A stretch of DNA of 64,000 bases from a virus (UHGV-1374671), one strand, 5' to 3'. Positions 10,631 to 47,470 are shown, counted from the stretch's first letter. Program-made: numbers and translations. Notes: generated from the letters alone by a model not told the origin.

Positions 10631-10631
10631 C

Positions 10632-11179: not shown

Positions 11180-11249
11180 ACACTGGCTTGATTTGATCGG
11201 TGATTCGCCGACCGTGTTGATCGTCACAAAGCGGTACTGAAGTCGCAGC

Positions 11250-11430: not shown

Positions 11431-11465
11431 ATACTGCGTGAAGCCAGATTTTCTGATTTGAGTTG

Positions 11466-17120: not shown

Positions 17121-17286
17121 AGTTGTTGATCCGGCAACTGTCCATCAGACCCGTACCAGGATGAAACCGGGTCGCCGACATGCGCTTCTCAACCGGGTTC
17201 AGGTTGTAGTGTATGTGCACGTCCGACGACCAGGTTCACGAGCCTGGTTATTTAGTCATAAAAAGTTTAACATAAGGAGGTTATAC

Positions 17287-18420: not shown

Positions 18421-18429
18421 GGTCATAGC

Positions 18430-30328: not shown

Positions 30329-30356
30329 GGCGAACGAAAACGAAAGGTACGCAAGA

Positions 30357-31862: not shown

Positions 31863-33259
31863 AAATGGCCGTGAGCTTCATTGACTCATTGATGGACGAT
31901 CTTGTCAAGGACGACAAGGAAGGCGCCATCATGACAGTTCAGGAGCTCCGTGAGCATCAGTACGGGATACCGTTGCGTTACTATGCGCAGCGGTATCTTT
32001 TTGGAGCTACCGGACTCCGTTTGAAAGTCTTTCACTCCATCTCAGGATTGCCTCAGTCGTGCAAGAGTCCCCTGTTGTTCGATCTCATGGGACATGTCTG
32101 CGCGGACTCTGAGCATCATGGGATGGGTGGAATCGGGTTCATCTACGAGCTCGAGGACAAGATCAGCCCCACGCTGCTTGCCAGCATCATGAGCCAGTAC
32201 GGGGATATCGTCGGGAACTCCTTTCGCGTGGTCAAGAACATGACCATCGAGGAAGCGTTCTCGCATATCTGCAGAAAGCTGATTCCGATGTATAACAAGC
32301 ACATGCGGGATTACGACATCCCGATCATCGTCGGGTTGGACTCCATTGGAGGAGCCGCAGCCAAGGATACCGTCGCCAAGCTCAGGGAGGACGGCGTAGC
32401 AGGCAAGGGCTTCTACGACAAGGCGCACTTCATGAAGTATTTCTGTGAGAACGCAGGCCAGGTGATCGGGGACATCCCGATGGTGGTAATCTGCATCAAT
32501 CAGGAAAAGGAGGCTGCAGCCACTACTCCAGGATCCTATGGTCCTCCCCAGAAGAAGATCACTGGGGGAGCGAGCCAGGTCTTCAAGGACGGGCACATGA
32601 TCAGCGCGTCGTTCCGAACTCTGGCGTCCGGCGACGGGAAGATCATCACCCTGCGCACCACCAAGACCTCCTTCAGCGACGCAAGAAAGCTGGAGGTCGA
32701 GTTCAGGTGGAACAAGTTCGGGTCCAGTCTTGCGGATTCCTATGGGCATCACTTCGAGTGGGCCCTGGCGTCTGCTAAGTGTCTGGCAGCCCCGGACAAG
32801 GGCGTGGGTGATCTTAGGGATATCGCCAATGTGTCCGTCAGCGAGAAGAATCTGGTTACATGTCCTCAGCTGGACTGCAGGTCGGTCCCGCCGGAGGAGT
32901 TCGAGGCCGCGCTCAATGCTCCCGAGTATGAGAAGGTCCTGAATGATCTGTACATGTACCAGAAGATCGAGCGCATCAAGGACATGGCCGCCTACGGGGA
33001 ATACATGAAGACCCGCAAGGAGCGCATGAAGACCAAGAAGGAAAAGGAAGAGGAAGAGAAAGCGAGCAAGGTGAAGGTAACCAAGGTCAAGGCCGCAGCC
33101 AAGCCTGCGAAGACCACCAAGGTCAAGACCGTGAAGGTGGCTAACCAGCCTGTCAAGTTTTCTCAACCGTTACTGGGAGGAATGAAGGATGGGGGACAGG
33201 AATCAGCTGAAGGCGTTTCTGGACTCGATACCTCAGCAGGCGAAACGACAGAGTCGTAA
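31859..33259 (+). CDS. RecA-superfamily ATPase (recombinase-like) with Lys-rich C-terminal tail
   Basis: Walker A-like GLPQSCKS; Walker B-like IIVGLDSIGG; ICINQ; tail KKEKEEEEKASKVKVTKVKAAAKPAKTTKVKTVKV. Confidence 0.45.
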   Translation: MKMAVSFIDSLMDDLVKDDKEGAIMTVQELREHQYGIPLRYYAQRYLFGATGLRLKVFHSISGLPQSCKSPLLFDLMGHVCADSEHHGMGGIGFIYELEDKISPTLLASIMSQYGDIVGNSFRVVKNMTIEEAFSHICRKLIPMYNKHMRDYDIPIIVGLDSIGGAAAKDTVAKLREDGVAGKGFYDKAHFMKYFCENAGQVIGDIPMVVICINQEKEAAATTPGSYGPPQKKITGGASQVFKDGHMISASFRTLASGDGKIITLRTTKTSFSDARKLEVEFRWNKFGSSLADSYGHHFEWALASAKCLAAPDKGVGDLRDIANVSVSEKNLVTCPQLDCRSVPPEEFEAALNAPEYEKVLNDLYMYQKIERIKDMAAYGEYMKTRKERMKTKKEKEEEEKASKVKVTKVKAAAKPAKTTKVKTVKVANQPVKFSQPLLGGMKDGGQESAEGVSGLDTSAGETTES

Positions 33260-33707
33260 TCGCAAGAGCGACGACATTATCGAGTTCATAAAGAAATACT
33301 GGCGGCTGTTCTGCTCCAGCCGGTATGATATGCGGAATGCCGTGGAGCAGCTTGGCACCACGGTTCCGTACTCGGTGGACGCGCTGTGCGATCTGCTCGG
33401 GGTACCTACCAACGTGCTGTTCAAGAAAGTCAAGGTCATCGACACCAGCGCCGCTCTTCTTGACTTCGAGAAGAGCGAGCTGTTCAACCAGTTCGTGAAC
33501 TTGTGCCAGTCGTTCAAGAGCGGAGAGGTGTGCCTGTTCGCTGTTGCAGGACAGAGGTCGCTTATCATTACGAACATGCAGACCGACTATGTTGAAGGTC
33601 GAATGCATCTGCTGTTCAAATCCATGGGGAATCTGCCTGACATCCACGTGTTCAGACCGGAGGACGCTCCTCTCAGAATCCCCACGTTATTCGATCATAC
33701 AATCTGA
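33189..33707 (+). CDS. hypothetical protein
   Basis: 172 aa ORF; start choice uncertain (overlaps previous gene by 71 nt). Confidence 0.35.
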   Translation: MGDRNQLKAFLDSIPQQAKRQSRNRKSDDIIEFIKKYWRLFCSSRYDMRNAVEQLGTTVPYSVDALCDLLGVPTNVLFKKVKVIDTSAALLDFEKSELFNQFVNLCQSFKSGEVCLFAVAGQRSLIITNMQTDYVEGRMHLLFKSMGNLPDIHVFRPEDAPLRIPTLFDHTI

Positions 33708-33721
33708 AAGGAAACAATAAA

Positions 33722-34744
33722 ATGGAAGAATTACAGGAAGTATCCGTTGAGAACGAACTTCCGGCTATTCTGGAAGAGGGCGAGGACCGCGATCTTGTTG
33801 TCGGCATCTCGCTTCCGTCCTATGACGACGTAGACGACAAGAAGGCCGCAGGATACATCAAGGACGTGTTCAAGGGTTTCACGTTCGACGCATCAGCGGA
33901 CTTCGCCAAGAAGTTCTCGAGCATGGACATGCTTGCCAACTACGTGCAGGAGTCCCTGACCGACATCCGCAAGGTGCGTAATCAGGCGGAGATGTCCGAG
34001 GTGCTTCAGCGCGGAGCCTGCCTGGCCCGTTTCTGGTGCCTCGGCAAGGCGTTGTCCAAAGCGCTGAACGAGGGTGAATACGGTACCGGCGCCGGCAGCC
34101 GTCTGGCCACCCAGCTCGGCAAGTCGGTTCCGTACATCTACCAGATCAAGGCAGTTGGCGAGCGTCTCACGCTGACCGACTGCTTCCTGCTCGGCGTTCG
34201 TGGATGCGACACCACAACGCTGAGAGGGCTGGCCCAGATCAAGGACGACGACACCAGAAAGAACATCATCCAGGCGTTCGTGGACAGCTTCATGGAATAT
34301 ACGGACGAGGCTTCCCGTATGCGGGCTAAGGCCAGCCTGGTGGCATCCATCAACATGAACCGCAAGGCGAAGGCCGGGTATATTGAGGAAGCGAACTCGG
34401 ACCCGGCTACCGGCGCGTCACCGGTGATGGTGAGCGAGATCTACCAGGAGACGATGGAGAACATCAACGCCTGGAAGAAATACTTGCTCAAACCATCCAA
34501 CGCCTCCGTGACGGAGGCGCTTATCCGGGCGCTTACCAACTTCTTCATCACGGAGTCTACACCGGATGCGCAGTCCCACCTGACTGCGATCAAGGGAGAG
34601 GCCGACCAGCTCAAGGTCACTATCCAGGCAGTCAAGAACAACCTGGACGATATCCTGATCCAGCTGGACAGCTTTGCTGCCAATGAAGTCCTGGTGGATA
34701 CGGACGACGAAGGAGAGCTCGAAGATGAGGGAGCCGAGCAGTAA
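33722..34744 (+). CDS. hypothetical protein
   Basis: 340 aa ORF. Confidence 0.45.
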   Translation: MEELQEVSVENELPAILEEGEDRDLVVGISLPSYDDVDDKKAAGYIKDVFKGFTFDASADFAKKFSSMDMLANYVQESLTDIRKVRNQAEMSEVLQRGACLARFWCLGKALSKALNEGEYGTGAGSRLATQLGKSVPYIYQIKAVGERLTLTDCFLLGVRGCDTTTLRGLAQIKDDDTRKNIIQAFVDSFMEYTDEASRMRAKASLVASINMNRKAKAGYIEEANSDPATGASPVMVSEIYQETMENINAWKKYLLKPSNASVTEALIRALTNFFITESTPDAQSHLTAIKGEADQLKVTIQAVKNNLDDILIQLDSFAANEVLVDTDDEGELEDEGAEQ

Positions 34745-35465
34745 GGTCATTGCTGCCAGGCTTTCCAATGTGCTGACCAGCGTGTCAGACCTGAATGGCA
34801 GTGTCTGTGATGAGCGGGCACTGTCATTTTTGTCCGGACGCATACGAGATGCCAGCCTTACCAGGGGAAAGCATCTGACAGCGGAACAGGAAACTGCCCT
34901 TTACAACAGCTTGAGCCACCTGCTTGGCAGAATACTTTCACCAGAACTACTGAGAGCCAACGTCCACCGTGTGGTTGCCAACTGGCACTTCATCATGGAA
35001 GGCATGGATATCCCGGAGTGGGGCGGTGAAAGGATCGACGCCAAGATCATATTCATCGGCGTTCGCAGGGCCAAAGTCAAGGATGGTGATCGTCCCAGGT
35101 ACCATGTTCGATTCAAATTAAAAAGCGGGCTTGGGGCTGGCATAATACTGTGTGCAGTGCTTTATGAGGCGGCCATGTACAGGTTCCTGGACAAGTTCTC
35201 AGGGGCCAGATCCTTCAACTGTCCGGCCGAGGAGATCGCCGGAATGGAGGCCAGAGTCCAGTTGTCCATCACCGAGAAGACGGTGACGATACACGACTGG
35301 AACTGTACAGCGGAGCAGCGTAAGCATAATGCAGAGCTTGCCACCCTTCGCAGCAATGTAGCGAAGTGCCGGCTGGGCGTTCCATGTAACACATGTCGAA
35401 AGAACATACTTCAATGCAACCTGGCGGTATGGCTGCCGGCTGCAAGAAAGGAATCAAATGAGTGA
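34725..35465 (+). CDS. hypothetical protein
   Basis: internal ATG chosen to limit overlap; frame start 34674. Confidence 0.35.
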   Translation: MREPSSKVIAARLSNVLTSVSDLNGSVCDERALSFLSGRIRDASLTRGKHLTAEQETALYNSLSHLLGRILSPELLRANVHRVVANWHFIMEGMDIPEWGGERIDAKIIFIGVRRAKVKDGDRPRYHVRFKLKSGLGAGIILCAVLYEAAMYRFLDKFSGARSFNCPAEEIAGMEARVQLSITEKTVTIHDWNCTAEQRKHNAELATLRSNVAKCRLGVPCNTCRKNILQCNLAVWLPAARKESNE

Positions 35466-36207
35466 AAAGACGAAACTTCACTTCACAAGGATCAGGGCCA
35501 AAGGGGAACCGTCGTTCTTCGATCCACAGACCGATATCAGGCAGCTGTTTCCTGCTGTGGCCAAAGCGGCGATCATGACGCTGCAGGACCAGAACCCAGG
35601 GGACAAGGAACTGCAGCACGACCTGACCTACATTCACAACTGTCTCTGCATTTTCCAGATCAGGATTGCTGAGGACACCGCTCCGGTTGCCGATCAGGTT
35701 GCCGCGTTTTGCAAGGCGCTGGACAAGTGCCGCAGCTCGACCGTGTCATTGTTGAAGTCCAGATTCTTCACGATGATCATGATGCTGTTCGCGTTGTTCT
35801 GCCGGCGTGACGCCAAGGTGGATAAGGACCAGCTGTCAACCATGATGTCCATGATCCAGCTCGCACCGCTGTCCACCATGATCAGCAAGGAGCTGTTTCA
35901 GCAGGTGCAGGAGGAGCTGACGGCCAATGCTCCGGCAAAGCTGCATGACGTCTGTTATCCGGACGGGTGCAACATCATGTGCGAGGAGACCCAACAGCAG
36001 CTCAAGGGAGCAAAAGACATTATTCGTCTTTTCGTCTCTGCTTCCGGTGACACCAGCTGGGAGGCCCTGGCTGCGGCCTGTGACGAGGCATTTTCTACTC
36101 CGGGTATAAAATCCGACGCCCAGAACATTGCTCTGGCGTTGGCGTATCCGGATTACGAACACCCGTCCCTGTCTGTTGAAGTGGAGGCGGAGCATGACTC
36201 TCTATGA
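35458..36207 (+). CDS. hypothetical protein
   Basis: 249 aa ORF. Confidence 0.4.
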   Translation: MSEKTKLHFTRIRAKGEPSFFDPQTDIRQLFPAVAKAAIMTLQDQNPGDKELQHDLTYIHNCLCIFQIRIAEDTAPVADQVAAFCKALDKCRSSTVSLLKSRFFTMIMMLFALFCRRDAKVDKDQLSTMMSMIQLAPLSTMISKELFQQVQEELTANAPAKLHDVCYPDGCNIMCEETQQQLKGAKDIIRLFVSASGDTSWEALAAACDEAFSTPGIKSDAQNIALALAYPDYEHPSLSVEVEAEHDSL

Positions 36208-37003
36208 CAAGTTGCAAAGACTGAAACGGATGCAGGACCTGGTGCTGTTCAAGTGGGTTTGCGGTCAGAAACGAGTGGCCAGCAATTTCATCATGCTCAG
36301 CGATCTCAGGCTGAATACGCTTACCTGTCACGCCGGTCGCGTCGTGTTCTCCAGTGCGGCTCCTATTCTGTTCATGGAGAAAGGCAGACCGGTGATCCAG
36401 TTCCGTGACTCGGACATCATGACTGTACTGAACGGACCAAGAAAGGGGATCAACATCCTTAGCCGTTTTTTGCAGCCTGGTGAGGAGGCTTCTGCTTGCA
36501 GATATTGCGACTGGCGTGAGGTCGTGGATTCCAGCTACTGTCCTAAGTGGTTGGAAGATAAGATCATGTCCATGGGAAACAGCCCGACGTATCCGGTCAG
36601 CAAGATCATCATGCCGGAACTGTTTCGCATCAGTAAGAAGCCGGAGACTCTGAAACCGATCTTCAGCTCCAGTTTCATCGAGGACATTGGAGGCTCCAAA
36701 ACGGACTCGATGCAGGAGCTGCTGCAGAAGTTCTACAACAATTTGGACCTGTTTGGATATCACACCGACGAGGGTTATGTGATCAGCAACGATTACATCG
36801 CCACTGGAGGATGCTGCGTAGCCGCCTCCAAGGGAATCAACGCACGTACAGGAAGCAGCGTGCACATGATGACCTTGAGAGCGTTCGCAGCGGACGTAGC
36901 CAGACGTCATTGGAGTATCCAACTGGCCAGACAAACCAAGCAATCAGGAGGCAACAACAATGGAGATGTGGAAAGATCTGATACTGTCCGTAACACCAGG
37001 TGA
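36194..37003 (+). CDS. hypothetical protein
   Basis: frame start 36128; ATG at 36194 gives 14 nt overlap. Confidence 0.35.
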   Translation: MTLYDKLQRLKRMQDLVLFKWVCGQKRVASNFIMLSDLRLNTLTCHAGRVVFSSAAPILFMEKGRPVIQFRDSDIMTVLNGPRKGINILSRFLQPGEEASACRYCDWREVVDSSYCPKWLEDKIMSMGNSPTYPVSKIIMPELFRISKKPETLKPIFSSSFIEDIGGSKTDSMQELLQKFYNNLDLFGYHTDEGYVISNDYIATGGCCVAASKGINARTGSSVHMMTLRAFAADVARRHWSIQLARQTKQSGGNNNGDVERSDTVRNTR

Positions 37004-37586
37004 TATCTGTTTCCTGGCTACTGCCACCACAGGACTGAATCCGGGGCCTGACAAGCTGTTGGGAGTGTCCTTGTGCAGATACAGTCCCCAGGAAGAGGCA
37101 GGGCAGACACTGCAGTTGATTCACAGCGTGGATCGGCTGCTGCTTTTGAAAGGCGAACGGTATCACAAGATATCGGAGAGCCTGATGCAGTCCGACGGAC
37201 TCGATACACGGGAGTTCAGCGACCGATTCGACGAGTTCACCCAGGACTGTACGTTCCTGTCGTACAATCCGGAGTTCCAGGAGAAGTTCCTGAACACCAT
37301 ACTCAGGAATCCTGTCCACATCTACGATCTGCCGTTGCTGCTGCGCGGCGCGGAGACCAGGATGGTGTGGGACAGGGAAGAACTGTCGTCCCTGGACGAG
37401 ATCACCAAGACGTTCTCGAAGGTGGTCGGAAAGGTTCCCAGCTTGAAGCAGTTGCTCAGACTGAACAACATGGTTGCCGAGCCGCCGTTCAACATGCTGC
37501 CTATGACCTACTTTTGCGCAGCCCTGTCCGGGCTCTGGGAGAAGTTCGACCTGATCCCTTTGGCAGTGCAAGAGTCGTTGGCTTGA
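36960..37586 (+). CDS. DnaQ-like 3'-5' exonuclease-fold protein with substituted catalytic residues (predicted inactive)
   Basis: FLATATTGLNPGPDKLLGVSL versus canonical FDTETTGLNP..D (Asp and Glu replaced by Ala); Exo II-like YNPEFQEKFL. Confidence 0.35.
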   Translation: MEMWKDLILSVTPGDICFLATATTGLNPGPDKLLGVSLCRYSPQEEAGQTLQLIHSVDRLLLLKGERYHKISESLMQSDGLDTREFSDRFDEFTQDCTFLSYNPEFQEKFLNTILRNPVHIYDLPLLLRGAETRMVWDREELSSLDEITKTFSKVVGKVPSLKQLLRLNNMVAEPPFNMLPMTYFCAALSGLWEKFDLIPLAVQESLA

Positions 37587-38061
37587 CGAGGTTGCGCATG
37601 CCTGCGGCAGCGGCCAGCAGATTGGCCCGGTTCACAAAACCGATCGCAGGCACGGCTTCCTTCGTTATGACCAGGCACTTGTTGGACTGCTTGCGGTTCA
37701 GCAACCCTGTGCTGGCGCCGGCAGGATAGTACAGCAGTACCTTTCCTCCCAGCCCGCACGGGTCGATGGCGCAGGATTTGTCGTCAGGTCCTGAGAGCTG
37801 CCATTTGGTCATGTCCACGGCAATGAATACGCCTTGCCTCTTTGTTCTTGGTGGTTTGCTGCAAGCGAGCAGGAAGCACAGGGATATCGGGGCAAGGTCT
37901 TCTATTTCCGTGTCCTTTGTCTCAAACAGAGGGCATGTCTGCAGAGTAGCGTACCGAATCACATCCGTTCCGGTTGCCTCTGTTATAATGCTCTCAAAGT
38001 CAGCTACACGGATTCCTTTTGTGAGCTGATCCGCAAGCGTATAACACTCTAAACAATCCAT
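37501..38061 (-). CDS. hypothetical protein, convergent with and overlapping the previous gene by 85 nt; weak LOG/nucleoside-deoxyribosyltransferase-like segment
   Basis: 186 aa minus-strand ORF; DPCGLGGKVLLYYPAGASTG; diverse composition argues against a spurious ORF. Confidence 0.35.
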   Translation of the reverse strand: MDCLECYTLADQLTKGIRVADFESIITEATGTDVIRYATLQTCPLFETKDTEIEDLAPISLCFLLACSKPPRTKRQGVFIAVDMTKWQLSGPDDKSCAIDPCGLGGKVLLYYPAGASTGLLNRKQSNKCLVITKEAVPAIGFVNRANLLAAAAGMRNLVKPTTLALPKGSGRTSPRARTGLRKSRS

Positions 38062-38070
38062 GAGGTCCCA

Positions 38071-39024
38071 ATGTTCGATTTTGACATGCCGCCCCTTGAC
38101 TGGAGAACGGCATTTATCCCAAAAAAGTCAGGAGGGATGCGTAAGCTGCGAATCCCCAATGACGAGCTCAAGCGCGTTCAGCGCGACATCTTAAACTACC
38201 TGTACACTGTAAAGGAGTTGAGGCCGTCAGGCTTCGCTCACGGCTTTGTTCCGTTCAGAAGTACCTGTACAGGAGCCATGCGACATGATAGAAAGGCCGA
38301 GGTCATCCTGTGTATGGACGTACAGGATTTCTTTGACAACTTCCCGGTGGAACCGGTAAGGCAGGCCTTGCTGAATGCCCATATCGGTCGGGTTCTCACT
38401 GACAAGATCATCACAGCCTGCACCTGTGACGGGTCCTTTCCGCAAGGTGGACCGTGCAGTCCGTACCTGACCAACATCGGCATGAAGGAAGTGGACTTGT
38501 TGATCTCCGCGTATGCGGCCAACAACGGGTTCAATTACTCAAGGTATGCCGATGACATCGCCCTCAGTCGTGATCCGCATACGACAGTTCCAGAGAAGCG
38601 CAACTACAAGCACATTTTCTTCGGAGTCGAAAAGATTCTGAAGGAACGACTGGGGCTTCACCTGAAGCACAAGAAAGATCACACGATCTGGCTTCACAGC
38701 AAGAAGGCGCCCAGACGTATCACAGGTGTGGTGATCCGGAAAGACGGCACAGGCTACAACGCTCCGATGAAGATGCGCAAGCTGGGCCGTGCCATGTTGC
38801 ACCGTCTGTATCAGAGAATCTCGGACCGCAACGGTGTGGTGCTGGATTCGGACTGGGCGGACTGGAGAAAGGTGCTGGGCTATGTCCAGTATTTCGACCG
38901 TATCCGTGCTTACAGCGAACCGGAGTCCGCCACTGCGGATCCCAAGATACCGGAGAATCAATTCAACTATATGGCAGCCAGATTTGGCATGAAGAGGAGA
39001 ACAAACAATGAAAACATACAGTGA
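38071..39024 (+). CDS. reverse transcriptase, retron-type (no maturase/endonuclease domains)
   Basis: FIPKKSGGMRKLRIP (RT1/2); HGFVPFRSTCTGAMRH; LCMDVQDFFDNF (motif A, retron-like DFF); FPQGGPCSPYLTNI (motif B'); YSRYADDIALS (YADD); RRITGVVIR (retron VTG-like); N-terminal patterning close to retron-Ec86 RT. Confidence 0.8.
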   Translation: MFDFDMPPLDWRTAFIPKKSGGMRKLRIPNDELKRVQRDILNYLYTVKELRPSGFAHGFVPFRSTCTGAMRHDRKAEVILCMDVQDFFDNFPVEPVRQALLNAHIGRVLTDKIITACTCDGSFPQGGPCSPYLTNIGMKEVDLLISAYAANNGFNYSRYADDIALSRDPHTTVPEKRNYKHIFFGVEKILKERLGLHLKHKKDHTIWLHSKKAPRRITGVVIRKDGTGYNAPMKMRKLGRAMLHRLYQRISDRNGVVLDSDWADWRKVLGYVQYFDRIRAYSEPESATADPKIPENQFNYMAARFGMKRRTNNENIQ

Positions 39025-40981
39025 ACTCCTGCAGGAAGCCTGGGACGCCGACCGGGACTACTACGTCCTGGACAAGCCCACGCTCACCGACGAGGAGTAC
39101 GACAAACTCATTCGCAGCATAGAGGCCTATGAGATGCAGCACCCGGACGAGATCGATCCCAACAGCCCGACTCAGCGCATCGGCGGCAAGGTCTCAGGCG
39201 CGTTCCAGAAGGTAAAGCATCCGCAGAAGATGTTAAGCCTGAACAACGCGTTCACGCTGACAGAGCTTCAGCTGTTCGCCACCAAGGCCAACAGGACGGC
39301 GCCAGATGGTGTGACGTTCCTGGTGGAGCCGAAGCTGGACGGGCTCACGTTGGTCTGCTTCTACGAGGAAGGAAAGCTGATCAGGGCGGTAACCCGTGGC
39401 AACGGCGTAGAAGGAGAGGACGTCACCGCGACAGCCAGGACGATCCGCAATCTTCCGTTGACAGTTCCGTATGCCGAATCGTTCCAGGTGCGCGGCGAGT
39501 GCGTCATGCCCATCCAGGTGTTCATGGAGCTGAATGCGAAACTGACGGACGCCGGTGAGGAACCGTTCGCCAATCCCAGGAACGCGGCTGCCGGCAGCAT
39601 TCGGCAGAAGGATCCGGCATTGGCTGCCGAGCGCAGGTTGTCCGTGTGCTTCTACGATCTCATCAACGGACCGGCAGACCGGATTTATACTGAATCCGAC
39701 AAGCTGGACTGGATGGAGGAGATCGGACTGCCCACCGTGAGATCAGCGTCCGAGGCGTTCGAGGACATCGAGGGCGCCTTCGAGTTCTGCACCCAGTGTG
39801 GAAAGGTTCGCTCCGATATGCCTATCGAAATCGACGGCATGGTTATCAAGGTGAATCGCATCTTCGTACAGGACAAGATGGGAGTCGGAACCAAGTTCCC
39901 GAACTGGGCCGTGGCTTATAAGTTCCCTGCGGAGCACAAGGCGACCAGCCTGACCTCAGTCGAGTGGCAGGTGGGGCGCACCGGAAAGGTGACTCCCGTG
40001 GCAGTGGTGGACGCCGTCAACATGAACGGCATCTTGCTCACTCACGCCAGCCTTCACAACCCGGCCTACATTGAAGCCCTGGACCTTCGTATCGGGGACA
40101 AGGTGACGGTGTACAAGGCGGCTGAGATCATCCCGCAGGTAGGCACGGTACTGGAACACGGCGACGGGCAGAAGGTGAAGATCGCGGATCAGTGTCCCAG
40201 CTGCGGAACCAAACTGGTGCAGGACGGTGCCGATCTCATGTGCACGAATCCGAAGTGCATTGGACGCCTGGTCACCTGGCTGTACTATTTCGGAGCCAGG
40301 GCCAACATGTACATCAAGGGTCTCGGTGTTGCCGTTATCAAGCAGCTGGTGGACTCAGGTATGTGCAAGGATCCTGCAGATCTGTACGCGCTGACCAGGG
40401 ATCAGCTGCTGAAGCTGGACGGGTTCAGCGACAAGAAAGCTGACTCGCTGCTGGCCTCCATCCAGGAGTCCAAGGCGCGTCCGTACCACAGAGTGCTCGC
40501 ATCCCTGGGCATCGAGATGCTGGGCGATTCCACTGCCGTTGACGTGGCTGCCCAATTTCCCACCATGGAGGCCCTTCTGGCTGCGACTGTGTCCGACCTG
40601 ATGGAAATACCTGGGATCGCACAAAAGACAGCCACAGCGATCTATGCGGGCCTGCATGACGATTCCATGGAGGACATCATAACCAGACTCGGAAAACAGG
40701 GTCTGTCGATGGTCAGCGAGTCGTCCAAGGAGCCGCAGACGCTGTCCGGGCTTTCCATCTGCATCACCGGAACTCTCACCAGGGATCGTGATTCCTACAA
40801 GGACGAGATCCAGTCGCATGGTGGAAAATTCGCAACCTCGGTGTCATCCAAGACCAGCTACCTGGTCGTAGGCGAGAACGTTGGTGAAACAAAACTGACA
40901 AAAGCAAGGAAGCTCGGCATCCCGATGATATCGGAGGACCAGCTTCAGGAGTTGATCAAACATGGAAAACAACAAAATTGA
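39008..40981 (+). CDS. ligA: NAD-dependent DNA ligase (LigA), full length with C-terminal BRCT
   Basis: EPKLDGL (KxDG adenylation lysine); RGNGVEGEDVT; OB, Zn (CPSCGTKL...C..C), HhH and BRCT regions; start overlaps RT stop by 17 nt. Confidence 0.9.
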   Translation: MKTYSELLQEAWDADRDYYVLDKPTLTDEEYDKLIRSIEAYEMQHPDEIDPNSPTQRIGGKVSGAFQKVKHPQKMLSLNNAFTLTELQLFATKANRTAPDGVTFLVEPKLDGLTLVCFYEEGKLIRAVTRGNGVEGEDVTATARTIRNLPLTVPYAESFQVRGECVMPIQVFMELNAKLTDAGEEPFANPRNAAAGSIRQKDPALAAERRLSVCFYDLINGPADRIYTESDKLDWMEEIGLPTVRSASEAFEDIEGAFEFCTQCGKVRSDMPIEIDGMVIKVNRIFVQDKMGVGTKFPNWAVAYKFPAEHKATSLTSVEWQVGRTGKVTPVAVVDAVNMNGILLTHASLHNPAYIEALDLRIGDKVTVYKAAEIIPQVGTVLEHGDGQKVKIADQCPSCGTKLVQDGADLMCTNPKCIGRLVTWLYYFGARANMYIKGLGVAVIKQLVDSGMCKDPADLYALTRDQLLKLDGFSDKKADSLLASIQESKARPYHRVLASLGIEMLGDSTAVDVAAQFPTMEALLAATVSDLMEIPGIAQKTATAIYAGLHDDSMEDIITRLGKQGLSMVSESSKEPQTLSGLSICITGTLTRDRDSYKDEIQSHGGKFATSVSSKTSYLVVGENVGETKLTKARKLGIPMISEDQLQELIKHGKQQN

Positions 40982-41945
40982 ACTGGACGACATCACGCCG
41001 GCCTCGTTCGCGCATCTGATCGAGCGACGTGACGACATCCTCCTTCAGCACGGAGGTGTGGTTACCCGCATGTATTTCGACAAGGTCGAGCTGATGGATC
41101 TGGACGCTTTCCTTCAGCAGGAGGTGCCCAGGCTGAAGCGACAGCAGCAGGAGCTCACGATCATACGTGACTCCGTCAGCAAATCCGTCAGCCTGATTAC
41201 CGGAGACCAGGTGATCAAGTACCACCTCACGAACATGGAGGAGTGCTTCGCGGACGAGCTGGCCAAGCTGATCAAGGTGGATGAGGTGAAGACGTTCATC
41301 CCGGACATTCACTATCCGTTGATCGGGTATGTGGACAAGGCCGATTACAAGGTGATAACTGTTCTTATCGAGAACAAATCGTTCACGTACAGAACCAAGA
41401 TGTTCGGCGGCGATCAGAAGGAATACGCCACGCGTGTTCACCTTCCACCGATATGGCTGGCTGTCCGCGTCAACAGGGCCGGTACGGTTCTCGGGGCCAG
41501 GATCGCTGCAGTACCGGAGAAGTCGTTGAAGACGGAGGACACGGTGCTGTACCGGCTCCCGCTTCCGAACATACACGTCAACGGAGAACTGTGTCTTGGC
41601 ACAGCTGCAGTAAAGGACGCATTTGCGCACGTGGAGCAGCCTACTGATGGCATGATTATTCAGGTCGTTGTTGATCAGATCTTCAACAGTCTGTGGAACT
41701 ATGACCTTATAGATCGCGATCTCGCCGAAGTGGTGAATGACGCCTACAGGAAAGCGCGTGTCAACAACCGTGACGCGTTCGACTCGTTTATTTCATATGC
41801 TGCTGGTAACCAGGCTGTTGCGATGCAGATCCGTATTGTTGGAATCCTGACCGATCCCAATGGTTGGAAGTTATTGAAGTACCGCAAGATGAACAAATAC
41901 GGCGGTGGAGACAGGATGCCTGTTACGCAGTTTCTGGAGGGCTGA
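40962..41945 (+). CDS. hypothetical protein
   Basis: 327 aa ORF overlapping ligA end by 20 nt. Confidence 0.4.
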   Translation: MENNKIELDDITPASFAHLIERRDDILLQHGGVVTRMYFDKVELMDLDAFLQQEVPRLKRQQQELTIIRDSVSKSVSLITGDQVIKYHLTNMEECFADELAKLIKVDEVKTFIPDIHYPLIGYVDKADYKVITVLIENKSFTYRTKMFGGDQKEYATRVHLPPIWLAVRVNRAGTVLGARIAAVPEKSLKTEDTVLYRLPLPNIHVNGELCLGTAAVKDAFAHVEQPTDGMIIQVVVDQIFNSLWNYDLIDRDLAEVVNDAYRKARVNNRDAFDSFISYAAGNQAVAMQIRIVGILTDPNGWKLLKYRKMNKYGGGDRMPVTQFLEG

Positions 41946-41948
41946 CAG

Positions 41949-42188
41949 ATGCGGGAACCCTTGTTTAAAAGGAAGCGGCCGATCAGGGTCGTCCTGCAGC
42001 GCGCCCCGTATTACGGGTACGCTCCGATCGGCAAAGAGGGGAACAGCGGAATGAACGCGTTCAACGCAGCCTTCGAGCAGGCTGTGAAAGCCACCAAGAT
42101 GACGGTGATGGCCAACGCCATGAAACAAATCCAAAAAGAGGCCGAGCATGTAGACTCGGATCTCGATATCCGAACAATTGAGGTGTAA
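41949..42188 (+). CDS. small hypothetical protein
   Basis: 79 aa ORF filling the gap between neighbouring genes. Confidence 0.3.
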   Translation: MREPLFKRKRPIRVVLQRAPYYGYAPIGKEGNSGMNAFNAAFEQAVKATKMTVMANAMKQIQKEAEHVDSDLDIRTIEV

Positions 42189-43344
42189 GATGAGAAGTTA
42201 TCTGATTGGGAGCGACAGGTGTCTTGTGCACACCAAATCTCCCATGCTGGAAGGGTGGGAGCCTTGCAAGGACCTGGAGGTCATCAAGGCGTTCGCCCCC
42301 AAGTGCAACCCCAAGTACCAGCCTGGGATGGTCTGGGTAGGCAGCAAGATGCCGTCCGAGCTCTTCCAGAAGGTGCTTGGCACGTTTGCGCAGTTCCCGA
42401 AGATGGAAACAGCGTACTCGATCTATTACCGGCTCAGCGACAGAAGCTGGCACATTAAAGTTCCTTCCCAGTGCGGGGCAGGGGCGTCCGTGCAGTTCGA
42501 GGACAAGGGGGATGGCGTACCGGCAGGCTATGCTCTGATCGGGTCCATTCATACGCATCCAGAAATGGGTGCGTTCTGGAGCGGTACCGACATGAACGAC
42601 CAGAAAAGCAAGTACGGGCTGCATATGGTATTCGGTCTCAAGGACGGAAAGGTGGCTCATCACAAGTGCTCCATCTTCACTCCCACGGACAAGTATGACC
42701 AGGAGATCTGGAACGTGGTCGAGGAAACCGACTTGGACGCCGACTATGAAGCTCCCCCGGAGTGGGTCGAGAAGATCAGGGCCCAGGATTACAAGCCGGT
42801 GAGGCAGTCCTGGGTGCAGCCTCTTCCGTACGACGTTTCCGGCAAGTACAGGTCTCCGGGTCAGTTTATGCGACCCCGTTACAACGTCCTCAGGCCTGTC
42901 ACGTACACCTGGGATGCCGGCAGCGGCTGGCACAAGAATGATCCAGACGTGGCACAGCCCACTTGGGAAGCCGGCACTTTCTCTTATCATGAGCCTGACG
43001 TCAATGCCCAGGAGCAAGTGTCCGACGCTGTTCTGAAAGCGCGTAAGGAATTTGAGAACGCACTGGACGTCCTTGTATGCGAGGCCGACTCCGAATACGT
43101 TCAGGAACTTCTGGACAGCTACGGGTTCTCCACGATGGACATGGAAACCGGCGCCATTGCCGGCGACGACGAGGACATCTCCTGGGAGGAGTCCCTGGAC
43201 GAAGCTCTGGCAGTGGCTGCGGAGTTCGCCGACGCGGACCCCAACCCGGAGACCAGGGATACTATGCGGGCCATCCTGCAGAAGTACGGGTTTGTCAGTG
43301 TCCATGCTCTGGATGAACAGGAAGAGGAGGCTCCATCATGCTGA
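42178..43344 (+). CDS. JAB/MPN (JAMM) metallopeptidase-domain protein with acidic C-terminal region
   Basis: IGSIHTHPEMGAFWSGTDMND matches H-x-H-x7-S-x2-D JAMM zinc motif. Confidence 0.6.
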   Translation: MRCKMRSYLIGSDRCLVHTKSPMLEGWEPCKDLEVIKAFAPKCNPKYQPGMVWVGSKMPSELFQKVLGTFAQFPKMETAYSIYYRLSDRSWHIKVPSQCGAGASVQFEDKGDGVPAGYALIGSIHTHPEMGAFWSGTDMNDQKSKYGLHMVFGLKDGKVAHHKCSIFTPTDKYDQEIWNVVEETDLDADYEAPPEWVEKIRAQDYKPVRQSWVQPLPYDVSGKYRSPGQFMRPRYNVLRPVTYTWDAGSGWHKNDPDVAQPTWEAGTFSYHEPDVNAQEQVSDAVLKARKEFENALDVLVCEADSEYVQELLDSYGFSTMDMETGAIAGDDEDISWEESLDEALAVAAEFADADPNPETRDTMRAILQKYGFVSVHALDEQEEEAPSC

Positions 43345-44234
43345 ACATCTATGTGATCGGCTGTGGAGGCATCGGAGGGTACCTGACTGAGATGCTGCCG
43401 ATGGCGATCGCCAGTCTGTCCCTGGACATTCTCCAGAGCAAGGGCATGTCCATTCAGGCGTACTTGGACAAGGCCGGCAACATCGCACTGCCTTGTGTCG
43501 CTGACCGGCTCACTCTGGTAGACGGGGATATCTTCAACGCCAGGAACTCCCTGCGACAGGGAGCAGGCGCCGGCAGCAAATTGGCCCAGCGAATGCAGGA
43601 CATCCAGCACTCCGTGGTCAGGCTCAGCTATCTGCAGAACATGAAGCTAGTCGGGTATAACGCCTATGTGAACCCGGCCAACATGTCACAGATCATACCT
43701 GAGCATCCGGAAATCAACCCGGACAACGCGGACGCCGCCATGAAGTACGGTAGCGATAGGCCTGCAGACTGTCCGAGACTGTTGGACAACTCGGTAGTGT
43801 TCCTGTGCGTGGACAACCTCAAGACCAGGTACGAGGTTTCCAAGTACATGGAAAACTTCCAGAACTGCCTTGTCATCAATGGCGGGAATGAGAAGACCTC
43901 AGGACACGTCACTCTCTATGAGCGCCGGAACGGGGAAGCACTTGATCCCAACATCTACGACGTGTATCCCAACATCACACCGGACGCGGACAAGCGTCCC
44001 GACGAGGAGGCATGCACCGAGATGTCTCCCAAACACGATCAGATTGCGGTGACGAACAGCATCGTCGCCAACATCATGATAGCCAGCTTCAACCGGTGGG
44101 CCAGATCAGGACTGACCCAGACGGAGGGAACCGGCGAAAGAAAGCGCACGGTGCGCAAAAACGAGGTGATCATTGACACTGACAGGATGTCCATGATTTC
44201 CGTGTATCACCCGCTGGGAACGCCCAGCAAGTAA
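43338..44234 (+). CDS. ThiF/MoeB/E1-like adenylyltransferase
   Basis: Rossmann VIGCGGIGGYL; E1 signature LTLVDGDIFNARNSLRQ (h-D-x-D-x-V-x-x-S-N-L-x-R-Q). Confidence 0.65.
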   Translation: MLNIYVIGCGGIGGYLTEMLPMAIASLSLDILQSKGMSIQAYLDKAGNIALPCVADRLTLVDGDIFNARNSLRQGAGAGSKLAQRMQDIQHSVVRLSYLQNMKLVGYNAYVNPANMSQIIPEHPEINPDNADAAMKYGSDRPADCPRLLDNSVVFLCVDNLKTRYEVSKYMENFQNCLVINGGNEKTSGHVTLYERRNGEALDPNIYDVYPNITPDADKRPDEEACTEMSPKHDQIAVTNSIVANIMIASFNRWARSGLTQTEGTGERKRTVRKNEVIIDTDRMSMISVYHPLGTPSK

Positions 44235-44260
44235 CCAGGCAAACGAAAGGAAAAACAATC

Positions 44261-44689
44261 ATGCCTACCACCCTGTTCAACGTCTATTCCGACCGTACCC
44301 GTGACATCCAGCTGAATCCCGGCACCACTGTCGGGCAGCTTCGTCGCATTCTCAAGGAGGGCGGATACGACGTCGTCGAAGCAACCGCCCACGTGGATCG
44401 TGCCGACGGCAGCGTCCTGCATGGCTACGTGGACAACTACGTACTCAAGGAGGGCGATGGCGTTCGCTTCAACACCGTCGTTCATGAGTACCCCGCCGAG
44501 GACTACCTCCAGAAGCAGGAGGAAGCCCGCAAGGCGGCTCATGCCTGCACCTGCCACGAGTGCAAGTGCGACGCCGCCGAGCAGTCCGTCAGCGTCGATA
44601 CGCTGAAGTCCGGTGACCGCACCATTGTCGTCGGCAAGGCCAAGATCACCATGAACGGTGATACGGTCACCATCGTTATCGGCAAGTAA
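44261..44689 (+). CDS. ThiS/MoaD-like beta-grasp (ubiquitin-like) protein with Cys-rich C-terminal extension
   Basis: N-terminal ~75 aa follows a ThiS-like pattern (YVLKEGDGVRFNTVV); then CTCHECKC; no terminal GG. Confidence 0.4.
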   Translation: MPTTLFNVYSDRTRDIQLNPGTTVGQLRRILKEGGYDVVEATAHVDRADGSVLHGYVDNYVLKEGDGVRFNTVVHEYPAEDYLQKQEEARKAAHACTCHECKCDAAEQSVSVDTLKSGDRTIVVGKAKITMNGDTVTIVIGK

Positions 44690-44794
44690 ATGTCAGTCGA
44701 TAGAGTAAAAACAACGTCAACAACAAACAATCAAGTCATGGAGACGGGTATGGTATCCGTCTCCGAATCCAAAAACAAAGAAGGAAACAGTATC

Positions 44795-45382
44795 ATGAAA
44801 GAGATCATCATCAACGGCATCAACGGCGCTTCCATCAACTTCGCGGCGGAGGACAACACCACTCTGGCTCAGATCTGCGAGCACGAGACGGTCATGGCGT
44901 TCTTCGACGAGGAAGCCGATACCATCAAGGAGAGCCTGCTGGAGATGAACGGCGGTGACGTCAGCGCGTTCCGCTCCTCCCTGCTCACCGCTCAGCCGTC
45001 GGACGGTGACTCTCTCCTGTTCGATCTGGACGGAGAGGTTGAGGAGGATAACTCCGATGAGGACGGCGAGGATGGCGTGGTCGTCGTGGCCACCAGCGGC
45101 GGTCTGCAGACCACCAACGTGGACATCGTCTGCGGCCGCACCACGGTCCATGACGCGATTTACTGTGACGTGGTCCGTGCCCGCAGCGGTATGACCGACG
45201 CCCAGCTGTCGAACTGCACCATCCTCCTGAACGAGGAGGAGATCTCCGACGAGGTGTCCCGTACCCGCACTCTGCGCAACGGCGACACCATTACGCTGTC
45301 CGCCCGTGCTGCGTCTTCCAAGGGCAAGACCTCGAAGAAGGTCGGGTTGCTGAAGGCCTTTGTCAAGGTCGTCTGCCGGTAA
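44795..45382 (+). CDS. tandem ThiS-like beta-grasp protein (two Ubl domains, internal Gly-Gly sites)
   Basis: MKEIIINGINGASINFAAEDNTTLAQI (ThiS-like start); internal GG at LEMNGG and VVVATSGG; second domain ...TLRNGDTITLSARA; hairpin GGAGACGG/CCGTCTCC just upstream. Confidence 0.4.
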   Translation: MKEIIINGINGASINFAAEDNTTLAQICEHETVMAFFDEEADTIKESLLEMNGGDVSAFRSSLLTAQPSDGDSLLFDLDGEVEEDNSDEDGEDGVVVVATSGGLQTTNVDIVCGRTTVHDAIYCDVVRARSGMTDAQLSNCTILLNEEEISDEVSRTRTLRNGDTITLSARAASSKGKTSKKVGLLKAFVKVVCR

Positions 45383-45388
45383 CCAACC

Positions 45389-45907
45389 ATGGAGGACAGT
45401 CGGATGAGAACGTGGAAGATTGAGATCCCTTTGAGGGTTCGCTGTGTTCAGAGCACCAGAGGAGGGCGAGGTCATTTTCACGTCGATCCGGCTGTCCGCA
45501 AGTGGAAGGAAGCCATTGCTCCGTACATCCGTGCCTGCAGTCCTGGACGACCGTCCAAGATGCCTATCCGGGTGAAATCCTTCGTGTACTACTTCCGCTG
45601 CCCGAAATCGGCAAAGGCTCCCGTCGTCCGCTACATCAAGGACGGCGGCGAGGTCCCGTACATGGGCGTTGCAGACATCACGGACAACATGAACAAAGGT
45701 GTTGTGGACGTCTGCAAGGGAGTGGTGTTCGAGGACGATTCTCAGATATGGCACGTCTGCGGCATCAAGAAGTTGTATGGACTTACCGATCACATCTTGC
45801 TGGAGTTCGAGGAAACACCTGACGTTGTCCTGATCAACGGCAAAAGAGGAAGTTCTCTCAGTGACGATCAAGACGAGATTCAAGACGACACCTGCTCTCT
45901 TATCTGA
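45389..45907 (+). CDS. hypothetical protein (member of Ubl/E1/JAB gene cluster)
   Basis: 172 aa ORF directly after the Ubl genes. Confidence 0.4.
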   Translation: MEDSRMRTWKIEIPLRVRCVQSTRGGRGHFHVDPAVRKWKEAIAPYIRACSPGRPSKMPIRVKSFVYYFRCPKSAKAPVVRYIKDGGEVPYMGVADITDNMNKGVVDVCKGVVFEDDSQIWHVCGIKKLYGLTDHILLEFEETPDVVLINGKRGSSLSDDQDEIQDDTCSLI

Positions 45908-46343
45908 GAGAGGTGCGTTGCATGTCCTGGTTGACATGCTTTGGAAAAACGGAGAGTACACCCGATCAGAAGTGTACTCGCTCCTGTCCCGTATTCTGCA
46001 GCAAGACAACCCGGTGCACATCTCTGATCTTGATCACAGCGAGATGTTGAAGGTAAGCCTGCGGATACAGAGGATGTTGGAGCAGGACGGGATAGCGCCC
46101 TGCCGTCAGTGCAAGTTTTGCGGCGCCGAGTGCACAACGCTCGGTATGCGGATCTGCGCACTGACCGGCAGGCCTTTCTGCTATCGGTATCAGAACAGTG
46201 AATTGATGCTCGCTCCTTGCGAGCGATACACAGAGGCCAGACATGCGAAGATTCTGCAATCTGAAGAAGCCGTCATTTTCCGAGAGGAAAATCGTGTATA
46301 TGAACGTAATGGGGATACCGCTACCTGTTGCCGTTCCCAGTGA
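45861..46343 (+). CDS. Cys-rich hypothetical protein (zinc-ribbon-like CRQCKFCGAEC)
   Basis: start uncertain (45861 or 45936). Confidence 0.3.
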   Translation: MTIKTRFKTTPALLSERGALHVLVDMLWKNGEYTRSEVYSLLSRILQQDNPVHISDLDHSEMLKVSLRIQRMLEQDGIAPCRQCKFCGAECTTLGMRICALTGRPFCYRYQNSELMLAPCERYTEARHAKILQSEEAVIFREENRVYERNGDTATCCRSQ

Positions 46344-47469: not shown

Positions 47470-47470
47470 G

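Follow-up and report, generated by a model that had tools for sequence, protein, structure and literature searches.

Retron reverse transcriptases (RTs) are encoded in chromosomal and prophage defence islands. Phage-borne examples are found in P2/P4-like prophages and Pf phages (the Ec67/Ec73 'retronphages' and Klebsiella phage 4LV2017), in which the retron is accessory cargo with a non-coding RNA and an effector. Group II intron RTs carry a maturase domain and are associated with an intron RNA, and group II-like RTs provide a precedent for RT function in DNA repair. Compact E1/E2/JAB operons, including the PRTRC systems, are also known from prokaryotes. An RT is not mentioned in the description of such operons by Iyer et al. 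2006 (PMC1779556); our literature searches combining retron or RT with ThiF or ubiquitin-like terms reported no such link, and papers retrieved for the PRTRC cassette made no mention of an RT.

We analysed a window of 64,000 nucleotides from a virus (UHGV-1374671), in which an RT gene precedes a DNA ligase gene and a cassette of E2-like, JAB-domain and ThiF/E1-like genes. We estimate at about one in two the probability that this is a stand-alone retron-clade RT, domesticated as a vertically inherited core replication/recombination gene of large (~150-195 kb) uncultured gut/rumen phages. The best explanation is that the locus is neither a retron nor an RT-ligase two-gene system.

Classification of the reverse transcriptase

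The RT gene (38071..39024, + strand) encodes a stand-alone protein of 317 aa with an intact YADD, which by sequence probably belongs to the retron clade. All the motifs quoted as a retron set in an earlier description of this DNA (hereafter the sequence-only reading) were located in the ORF, namely IPKKSGGMRKL, HGFVPFRSTCTGAMRH, DFF, QGGPCSPYLTNI, YSRYADDIALS and RRITGVV, and no maturase, endonuclease or extra domain was detected in the 317 aa, as that reading had stated. The protein matches Pfam RVT_1 at 1.5e-21. The HMM classification proposed there gave retron RTs as the best matches in both PADLOC, where the top matches were all retron RT models (~1e-41), and NCBIfam (retron St85, 7e-42, versus group II intron, 1e-23, and Drt2, 1e-11). 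All curated cut-offs were missed, St85 scoring 143.6 bits for a cut-off of 235 (NCBIfam), and no one retron type stands out. The closest solved structures are those of retrons Ec67 (2e-44) and Ec86 (1e-38). Of the first 25 codons compared, 22 encode identical amino acids, and 10 of these 22 differ synonymously. These sequence data identify the RT as retron-type and indicate that it is catalytically intact and under purifying selection.

Other RT classes were also considered. As a group II intron RT the protein scores 83.7 bits with TIGR04416 (1.3e-23) versus a cut-off of 300 and lacks the maturase (X) domain, and Rfam detected no group II intron RNA in the window. A diversity-generating retroelement (DGR) RT was rejected, since no template/variable repeat pair was found and motif 4, QGxxxSP, is of the retron/group II type; direct repeats of at least 30 nt did not exceed chance in 30000-48000. 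As a UG/Abi defence RT it reaches 44 bits versus 390 for Drt2, 42 versus 200 for Drt3a, and 6e-6 for AbiK.

Distribution and synteny of the RT family

The RT family comprises ~80 homologue clusters (E 1e-215 to 1e-51), followed by a gap to 1e-27. Many of these clusters lie on phage contigs of 148-196 kb, and no member was found among 185,579 bacterial/archaeal species genomes. Genes for a terminase and a helicase, SbcCD-like genes and a group I intron are present in the window itself, and the relatives are on phage contigs of 150-195 kb, corroborating the earlier suggestion of a phage-borne RT. These sizes agree with the 150-210 kb reported for clades of stop-codon-recoded large gut phages (Borges et al., bioRxiv 10.1101/2021.08.26.457843), a paper in which no RT is mentioned.

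The gene order up5..up1, ORF-m, RT, (LigA), E2, JAB, ThiF was kept in all loci examined. The RT occupies the same syntenic position in 18 dereplicated lineages, within a replication/recombination module. PolA, a DnaB-like helicase, SbcCD-like proteins, a DEDDh-like exonuclease, RusA and RNase H are further members of this module, joined in some lineages by LigA. Between loci, the RTs are 36-60% identical and diverge in step with the neighbouring genes, which suggests vertical inheritance within the phage clade. In one relative lineage (L013 and L086), the RT gene is interrupted by a group I intron with a TnpB element, inserted within a conserved motif between IPKKDGS and LRYLLIPND. Phage introns usually occupy conserved sites of important genes.

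The DNA ligase and the E2-like/JAB/ThiF cassette

The RT is followed by LigA (39008..40981, + strand), a complete NAD-dependent DNA ligase of 657 aa identified by its Pfam domains and TIGR00575. It scores 682.5 bits with TIGR00575 (NCBIfam cut-off 444), and the adenylation, OB, Zn-finger, HhH and BRCT domains are all above the Pfam cut-offs; the N-terminal Ia domain gave a sub-threshold match only (PF22745, 20 bits versus 27). PADLOC returned only weak matches for this protein, to the candidate family PDC-S48, over the C-terminal BRCT region. The 5' end of LigA overlaps the 3' end of the RT gene by 17 nt (39008-39024), so the overlap between the RT stop and the start of a full-length ligase, described before, is correct. 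The pairing of RT and ligase as a unit, proposed in the same reading, did not hold: counting this position only, 9 of the 18 dereplicated lineages have LigA as the gene that directly follows the RT, and in the remaining 9 the RT is followed directly by the E2-like gene. From this distribution, LigA is a neighbour in half of the lineages and apparently no dedicated partner of the RT. The shared strand and the overlapping ORFs suggest that the two genes are co-transcribed, and LigA would be the ordinary nick-sealing replication ligase of the phage, merely sharing the operon.

The next conserved gene after RT or RT-LigA is always the E2-like gene (40962..41945, + strand), which overlaps the preceding gene by ~20 nt and encodes a Prok-E2_D/PRTRC_B-like protein (Pfam 3.1e-5; NCBIfam PRTRC_B 6e-4). 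It is followed by a small ORF of 79 aa (41949..42188, + strand), then by a PRTRC_A-like JAB-domain protein (42178..43344, + strand; Pfam Prok-JAB 2.3e-5, NCBIfam PRTRC_A 1.6e-6) and a ThiF/E1-like adenylyltransferase (43338..44234, + strand; Pfam ThiF 3.9e-8, NCBIfam PRTRC_ThiF 5.2e-6). Genes of 68-86 aa occupy the small-ORF site in L001, L002, L003, L168, L170 and L171, and a 178-aa gene or a gap is found there in other relatives. No ThiF homologue was detected in GenBank phages at E<=1e-5. The comparison indicates that the constant neighbours of the RT are ORF-m upstream and the E2-like/JAB/ThiF cassette downstream, not the ligase. Assignment of the cassette to a true PRTRC system was rejected (PRTRC_A 27.8 versus 101.8, PRTRC_B 19.2 versus 131, PRTRC_ThiF 26 versus 145), and neither PRTRC_C nor ParB was matched in NCBIfam; by these profiles the resemblance to PRTRC appears distant only.

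In more distant phages with ~30% identical RTs the adjacency to an E2/JAB/E1 cassette recurs, and the RT may perhaps be part of a dedicated system and not of general DNA metabolism. RT, E2-like protein, small ORF product, JAB and ThiF would then form one system, coupling a retron-clade RT to ubiquitin-like conjugation. The conjugation would modify, for example, the RT itself, the RT product or a target in the host, and the phage would employ the system in takeover, in counter-defence or to exclude competitors. We consider this rather unlikely. The invariable overlap with the start of the E2-like gene and the presence of the cassette in 18/18 lineages argue for it, as do a distant 183-kb phage contig (L069/L350) with a 30% identical RT and the order RT, E2-like, x, ThiF, and the JAB and/or ThiF-like genes located 1-5 kb from 30-32% identical RTs in L051 and L030. 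Additionally, ThiF of this type is nearly confined to RT-bearing contigs in IMG/VR. However, synteny is high across the whole module, and therefore the RT-cassette adjacency alone is weak evidence. Furthermore, the cassette matches are far under the curated cut-offs, one contig with ThiF and JAB (L349) has no RT within 15 kb, L172 and L174 apparently lack ThiF, and neither the literature searches nor Iyer et al. 2006 (PMC1779556) link an RT to such a cassette.

The minus-strand gene and the RT leader

Five syntenic + strand genes precede the RT, the nearest being up1 (36960..37586, + strand; 208 aa), which is weakly DEDDh-exonuclease-like (PADLOC DEDDh 6.5e-6) and was recovered by tblastn at the same place, with 26-35% identity, in family loci with enough upstream sequence. 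Between up1 and the RT lies ORF-m (37501..38061, - strand; 186 aa), with an all-beta model and a basic C-terminal tail. The convergent minus-strand ORF of the sequence-only reading exists and converges on up1, the two 3' ends overlapping by 86 nt, but it is divergent relative to the RT: the two genes are head-to-head, with 9 nt between the ORF-m ATG at 38061 and that of the RT. The spacer (38062..38070) reads CAT-GAGGTCCCA-ATG and leaves no room for promoters; for the RT it offers GAGG, a Shine-Dalgarno-like sequence, and the near-palindromic complement of the spacer could act likewise for ORF-m. In relatives the ORF-m/RT spacers are of the AAGGAGTCCT type and measure 0-12 nt.

The ORF-m protein is conserved in relatives (24-36% identity, E 7e-5 to 1e-24), and 72 representative homologues were found among 1.84e9 proteins; judged by this conservation, ORF-m is a real, clade-specific protein gene. 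No similarity was detected in Pfam, PHROGs, PADLOC or NCBIfam. The AF2 model is all-beta (pLDDT 90.5), and a fold search with it gave no significant match to known folds. Since the model is confident and all-beta and resembles no known fold, ORF-m is not LOG/nucleoside-deoxyribosyltransferase-like, and the segment of that kind suggested previously can be withdrawn. An Ec86-type effector of this class on the opposite strand was likewise rejected, the model pointing to a novel all-beta protein.

In six relatives the ORF-m frame is interrupted 5-12 times by TAG alone and never by TGA or TAA. The count in L164 is 12 in-frame TAGs in ORF-m versus 0 in 17 + strand genes, and in the TAG-recoded relatives ORF-m is the sole TAG-bearing gene of the module. 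The window itself uses the standard code, and the RT gene is in standard code, as are early or middle genes. In recoded gut phages the late genes are recoded (Borges et al.), resembling the use of TAG in the ORF-m of the relatives and its avoidance in replication genes. The restriction of TAG to ORF-m in these relatives is thus a probable late-gene signature.

The upstream space of the RT is filled by this protein gene on the other strand, and the earlier statement that no msr/msd can be recognised is supported by our data. Rfam served for the search with RNA models suggested for this region; neither the scan of 36500-39200 (E<=10) nor that of 33000-47000 (E<=0.1) returned anything resembling a retron RNA. 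Nevertheless, the 400 nt 5' of the RT have a more stable fold than shuffles in every locus, with a mean z of -4.8 versus -2.1 (SD 1.6) in neighbouring windows. The + strand is more stable than the - strand in the window (z -6.0 versus -3.5) and in 11 of 15 loci. The window leader also contains a 14-nt inverted repeat (37689-37702/38025-38038), which is lost in L171, a 68% identical lineage. The folds of the window and L171 have just 16 pairs in common, and of 100 window MFE pairs changed in L171, 31 remain canonical, which is the chance level. No covariation was found in the leader (RNAalifold covariation term +0.64), the highest mean pair probability over 15 loci was 0.33 with no positionally conserved pairs, and long-range duplexes equalled shuffled controls. 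In 37500-38070 there was no nucleotide-level conservation beyond what coding explains. The leader structure is therefore unusually stable but not conserved. As it is more stable than shuffles, a fast-evolving structured leader may still be present.

These results bear directly on whether the locus is a true retron, with an msr/msd formed by the RT leader antisense to ORF-m, a dual-use sequence that evolves too fast for comparison. The leader is at the usual site of a retron ncRNA, directly 5' of the RT and on the same strand, it has an excess of + strand stability, and its inverted repeat resembles a1/a2. However, the loss of repeat and MFE fold in L171, the lack of conserved pairs in the 15 loci, the ordinary long-range duplexes, the Rfam result and the absence of leader conservation beyond coding all stand against it. 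In addition, PADLOC found no retron effector of a described type among the four genes scanned (RT, LigA, ORF-m and up1), and we regard a true retron as improbable.

Proposed role of the RT

The sequence-only reading had offered three options, a phage-borne retron variant, a defence-associated RT relative, or an RT recruited with the ligase for replication or repair. The last fits best, but the ligase part was not sustained, and the companions are the downstream cassette and a head-to-head late gene. The gene neighbourhood suggests a role in replication or repair. During the early or middle phase of infection, the RT would synthesise cDNA on a template other than a classical msr/msd. The cDNA would be used in phage DNA metabolism, whether for priming, for the repair of gaps or breaks or for takeover, and the neighbouring E2/JAB/E1 cassette may take part. 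Transcription of the late gene ORF-m through the RT 5' end could then shut off RT expression late. The more specific version, in which the RT has become an indispensable, intron-hosting core gene that has no msr/msd and acts with the cassette in replication, repair or takeover, is put forward only tentatively. If true, it would place a reverse-transcription step within the life cycle of a tailed dsDNA phage.

That the RT is an accessory gene for abortive infection or superinfection exclusion, carried by the phage as defence cargo like the P2/P4-type prophage retrons, is quite improbable. GenBank phages do have retron-type RTs of this kind (Klebsiella P2-like and Pseudomonas Pf phages), and the best sequence matches are defence retron RTs; however, defence cargo is typically variable, whereas this RT is fixed in position in every lineage, diverges along with its neighbours and has its place among the replication genes instead of in a hotspot. 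The self-splicing intron in the RT gene and the lack of an effector in the PADLOC scan of the four genes also argue against cargo. Finally, by analogy with DRT2 'neo', the RT might copy its own leader into ORF-m-sense DNA as extra late-gene templates, but this is very improbable, since only geometry (ORF-m exactly antisense to the leader, with the 0-12 nt spacing in all lineages) and leader stability speak for it, while a replicating phage has no obvious need of it, ORF-m is a complete, ordinary reading frame that has a Shine-Dalgarno-like sequence of its own, repeats or template-jump signatures were not found, and the RT is only weakly Drt2-like (1e-11).

Comparison with known systems

The cassette is similar to PRTRC and prokaryotic E1/E2/JAB operons in its compact organization and in its matches to PRTRC_A, PRTRC_B, PRTRC_ThiF and Pfam Prok-E2_D, Prok-JAB and ThiF. 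It differs from PRTRC in having no ParB and no recognisable ubiquitin-like protein, and in its phage location beside an RT. Group II intron and intron-like RTs, including G2L4, are the next-best class for the RT (TIGR04416 1.3e-23; GsI-IIC RT 2e-24), but in contrast to group II intron RTs the phage protein has no maturase or endonuclease domain and no detected intron RNA.

The highest similarity of any RT class is to retron RTs (Ec67/Eco2, Ec86/Eco1, St85/Ec78). The phage RT has nearly the size of the Ec86 RT (317 versus 320 aa) and, like retron RTs, is stand-alone and has YADD, the QGxxxSP motif 4 and an xTG-like segment after motif 7; of the retron 'NAxxH', only an invariant H is left in the phage family. 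Unlike retrons, it has no detected msr/msd or known effector. The RTs of P2/P4-like and Pf phage retrons are likewise phage-borne, but they are just 25-26% identical to it, and their retrons are accessory cargo comprising both an ncRNA and an effector, neither of which was found here. In contrast to the retron RTs of defence islands, the RT described here is conserved throughout its clade and placed within the replication module, among the syntenic core genes of large phages of lytic type.

Identity and distribution of the reverse transcriptase

The open reading frame at 38071-39024 (+) encodes a reverse transcriptase (RT) of 317 aa, in which all the motifs quoted in the sequence-only reading are present. 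The protein matched Pfam RVT_1 at 1.5e-21, and its 25 best matches in PADLOC were all retron RT models, with types XIII, III-A and II-A tied at ~1e-41. Among the NCBIfam models, retron St85 (7e-42) and Ec67 (1e-36) scored better than the group II intron RT (1e-23), Drt2 and Drt3a, all curated cut-offs being missed. When the family profile was compared with solved structures, retron Ec67 (2e-44) and Ec86 (1e-38) came out best and the group II RTs reached 2e-24. Rfam detected no group II intron RNA in the window, and a DGR reading was rejected, since no TR/VR repeats were found. By sequence, the RT appears to represent a new clade of a known kind of enzyme.

A search of 5.8 billion proteins recovered ~80 clusters of this RT at E values of 1e-215 to 1e-51, all of 285-398 aa except for one fragment of 185 aa, and many of them located on contigs of 148-196 kb. 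A gap in E values separates the family from generic retron-type RTs, which begin at 1e-27. No family member was found in 185,579 bacterial and archaeal species genomes, where the best matches were ordinary retron RTs, 32-34% identical. Our literature searches found no paper on the present RT family.

The window is nearly all plus-strand coding, with a GC content of ~0.54, and no near DNA match to it was found among GenBank phages. The large terminase (GpA_ATPase-like, 13251-15086) is on the minus strand, and its best cultured relative is that of Salmonella phage Arash, at 26% identity. It is adjoined by SbcD-like (Metallophos) and SbcC-like (SMC_N/AAA_23) genes at 17161-20439 (+), and helicase-like genes are also found in the window. 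We compared the region with 31 related loci, which together with the window represent 18 dereplicated lineages. All loci share a gene order that starts with five plus-strand genes of unknown kind (the last, 36960-37586 in the window, is weakly DEDDh-exonuclease-like), a minus-strand ORF, the RT and, in some lineages, a DNA ligase. Next come an E2-like gene, a small ORF, JAB and ThiF, followed by a few small genes and RusA; PolA lies upstream of the RT module and RNase H downstream.

The adjacent DNA ligase

The NAD-dependent DNA ligase gene (LigA, 39008-40981, +) is complete, as first described (TIGR00575, 682 bits), and overlaps the RT by 17 nt. As a headline, however, an RT-ligase system is unsupported, because a LigA gene separates the RT from the E2-like gene in only half of the 18 lineages (the window with L003, L171-176, L177-179, L002, L084, L006/008, L007, L012 and L344). 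It is absent from this position in the other nine (L001, L004, L005, L009/010/013/086, L011, L164-166, L167, L168/169 and L170). In most of these the end of the RT gene runs ~20 nt into the E2-like gene, an overlap that LigA makes in the window; the exceptions are L004 and L170, with gaps of ~135 and ~38 nt, respectively. In a scan of IMG/VR limited to exact peptide patterns, large phages often encoded NAD-dependent ligases, and no contig of the lineages without LigA at this position was returned. Literature searches found no paper describing an RT-LigA pair. We read LigA as the probable replication ligase, encoded in one operon with the RT. A false lead is thus removed, in that the adjacency represents no conserved two-gene system.

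An unrelated metagenome contig of 104 kb and GC 0.71 (Ga0172373_10000150; locus L163, 8001-12000) carries matches to a retron-type RT (30% identical) and to LigA (36%) that are about 1.4 kb apart or less, and the two matches may share a single 1119-aa ORF (8906-12265).

The E2/JAB/E1 companions

Directly after LigA, the window carries a PRTRC-like ubiquitin-type cassette (40962-44234, +) composed of the E2-like gene, a 79-aa ORF, JAB and ThiF/E1. The genes that follow the RT or LigA have distant similarity to Prok-E2_D/PRTRC_B, Prok-JAB/PRTRC_A and ThiF/PRTRC_ThiF, with every score far below the cut-offs, and no GenBank phage homologue of the ThiF protein was found at E<=1e-5. The cassette is kept in all loci of the RT family and partly in more distant phages: a 183-kb contig (L069/L350) whose RT is 30% identical has the order RT, E2-like, x, ThiF, and in L051 and L030 JAB and/or ThiF-like genes lie 1-5 kb from RTs that are 30-32% identical. 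A ThiF/JAB contig showing no RT within 15 kb was also seen (L349), and no ThiF was detected in L172 and L174 where L171 has it, beside a TnpB insertion. Literature searches found no link of RTs to E1/E2/JAB cassettes. A dedicated system formed by the RT and ubiquitin-like conjugation is a possible but rather unlikely explanation.

Search for an msr/msd in the leader

No recognisable msr/msd had been reported upstream of the RT, and our search for conserved structure in the leader, the region 5' of the RT and antisense to the minus-strand ORF, likewise found none. The plus-strand RNA of 37587-38070 is unusually stable, with a z score of -6.0 against -3.5 on the minus strand. Compared with dinucleotide shuffles, the leader of the window and the matching 400-nt stretches of 14 relatives gave z scores of -3 to -6.8; over eight loci, the 400 nt before the RT had a mean z of -4.8, against -2.1 (SD 1.6) in neighbouring windows. 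Although the leader exceeds the coding windows around it in stability, none of its base pairs is kept from one lineage to another. The only a1/a2-like inverted repeat (37689-37702 and 38025-38038) is lost in the L171 lineage, which is 68% identical. Of the minimum-free-energy pairs of the window that are changed in L171, 31/100 stay canonical, a proportion equal to that in slid controls, and 16 pairs are common to the two minimum-free-energy folds. RNAalifold gave a covariation term of +0.64 for five sequences from the subclade of the window and an empty consensus for a codon-anchored alignment of 15 loci, in which averaged pair probabilities reached a maximum of 0.33. Long-range duplex energies between the 5' and 3' parts, calculated by unrestricted duplexfold, equalled those of shuffled controls; the stretch showed no conservation at the nucleotide level, and no retron ncRNA was matched by Rfam at permissive thresholds on either strand. 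By these comparisons, the RT lacks a defining feature of retrons. The stability of the leader would suit a genuine retron whose antisense ncRNA evolves fast, but given these results we consider such a retron distinctly improbable.

Selection and insertions in the RT gene

RT identities to the window range from 36 to 60%, in step with those of the neighbouring genes, and codon comparison revealed many synonymous changes over conserved residues. These data point to vertical inheritance and purifying selection and not to mobile defence cargo; an RT carried for exclusion or defence is very unlikely, since its divergence follows that of its neighbours, unlike mobile cargo. On sequence evidence, the RT is inherited vertically as part of the replication module in a widespread group of large gut and rumen phages.

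In two independent assemblies (L013 and L086) the RT is split inside the motif IPKKDGS|LRYLLIPND by a 1.6-kb element (6400-7999 in L013). The element opens, precisely at the junction, with a group I intron (Rfam 43 bits, E 3.5e-9; the gathering score is 50), which is followed by a 361-aa TnpB/IS605-OrfB-like ORF (6823-7908), an organisation that identifies the insertion as an IStron-like element in the reverse transcriptase gene. A natural RT knockout was considered and rejected, because the insertion starts with a group I intron. Self-splicing phage introns typically occupy conserved sites of important genes, and we take this insertion, in a conserved motif, as support for an RT that is expressed and functional.

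The window itself contains a group I catalytic intron (21727-21952, +; Rfam RF00028, 88 bits, E 4e-21), which sits between a ResIII/SNF2-like ORF (20459-21760) and a DnaB_C/KaiC-like ORF (22593-24215). TnpB (OrfB_IS605/Cas12f-like) genes occur at varied places of the module in several relatives, one of which also has a Hom_end_hint (intein-type) protein; the positions concerned are in L164 (2121-3218 and 14676-15806), L165 (3520-4641), L171 (15906-16564) and L172 (1040-2146 and 1-673).

The minus-strand ORF and TAG recoding

The minus-strand ORF (ORF-m, 37501-38061, 186 aa) is a real gene: its product is alignable across all lineages, with Gly16-Ile17, Pro44, Trp87, Asp100 and Pro138 conserved, and tblastn found homologues at E values of 7e-5 to 1e-24. 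The proposed LOG/nucleoside-deoxyribosyltransferase identity was rejected by four HMM libraries and by the predicted structure (AF2 pLDDT 90.5 with a 55-sequence alignment, 38 with a 7-sequence alignment). Its description as convergent holds toward the upstream plus-strand gene, with an 86-nt overlap, but toward the RT it is divergent. In every lineage, 0-12 nt separate the start codons of the two genes (38059-38073 in the window, and equivalents), so that the 5' UTR of each gene must be antisense to the coding sequence of the other. A neo-like process in which the leader is copied into ORF-m DNA, which this antisense geometry would invite, is scarcely credible. The spacer between the start codons is short and often palindromic, Shine-Dalgarno-like (AAGGAGTCCT type), and could serve both strands. 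A scan of 36800-39300 for sigma-70 promoters and terminators gave results at chance level. No suppression of synonymous change was seen in the 5' end of the RT, on which ground an embedded element there, such as an ORF-m promoter, was rejected.

The ORF-m frame is broken 5-12 times in L010 (7295-7951), L011 (275-868), L164 (7366-7989), L167 (7379-7999), L168 (7403-7999) and L170 (7393-7989), all on the minus strand, and always by TAG; TGA and TAA do not interrupt it. With about ten stops, such a pattern would arise by chance with a probability of roughly (1/3)^10 per locus, so TAG is read as a sense codon in these six relatives. Their RT and all other module genes are free of in-frame TAG; L164 has 12 in ORF-m against none in 17 plus-strand module genes. 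The window uses the standard code, and its own ORF-m ends with TAG. In recoded phages, recoded stops occur in late genes and their use in replication genes is variable (Borges et al., bioRxiv 10.1101/2021.08.26.457843). The restriction of TAG to ORF-m, considered with this pattern, makes ORF-m most probably a late gene within an early/middle module. The ORF-m/RT pair would then be a compact natural case of an early/late antisense arrangement tied to stop-codon recoding.

Proposed role and comparison with described retrons

The RT is intact, under selection, phage-only and syntenic; it uses the standard code, has no conserved ncRNA, overlaps the gene that follows and has the probable late gene ORF-m head-to-head beside it. 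Our confidence is high as regards its identity and low as regards its role. The best explanation as a package, to which we give a probability of about 0.5, is a stand-alone RT of the retron clade in a phage replication module, acting early or in the middle of infection on a template other than an msr/msd. According to this proposal, the RT would be produced early or mid infection by read-through of the replication operon, would synthesise cDNA from a template different from the classical msr/msd, and would function in DNA metabolism of the phage or in takeover, possibly with the E2/JAB/E1 genes; the RT would later be silenced when late transcription of ORF-m passes through the RT 5' end. A specialist would find this reading, which replaces the RT-ligase system, surprising. 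If the RT does act in phage DNA metabolism or with the E2/JAB/E1 genes, the known roles of prokaryotic RTs would widen, and retron-like enzymes could be regarded as tools of phage replication or takeover, beyond host defence.

Described retrons are bacterial or prophage defence modules of an RT, an ncRNA and an effector, whereas the RT of the window has neither partner. It differs from every described retron type in belonging to the core genes of a phage, in lacking both ncRNA and effector, in having E1/E2/JAB genes as neighbours and in serving as host to an intron.
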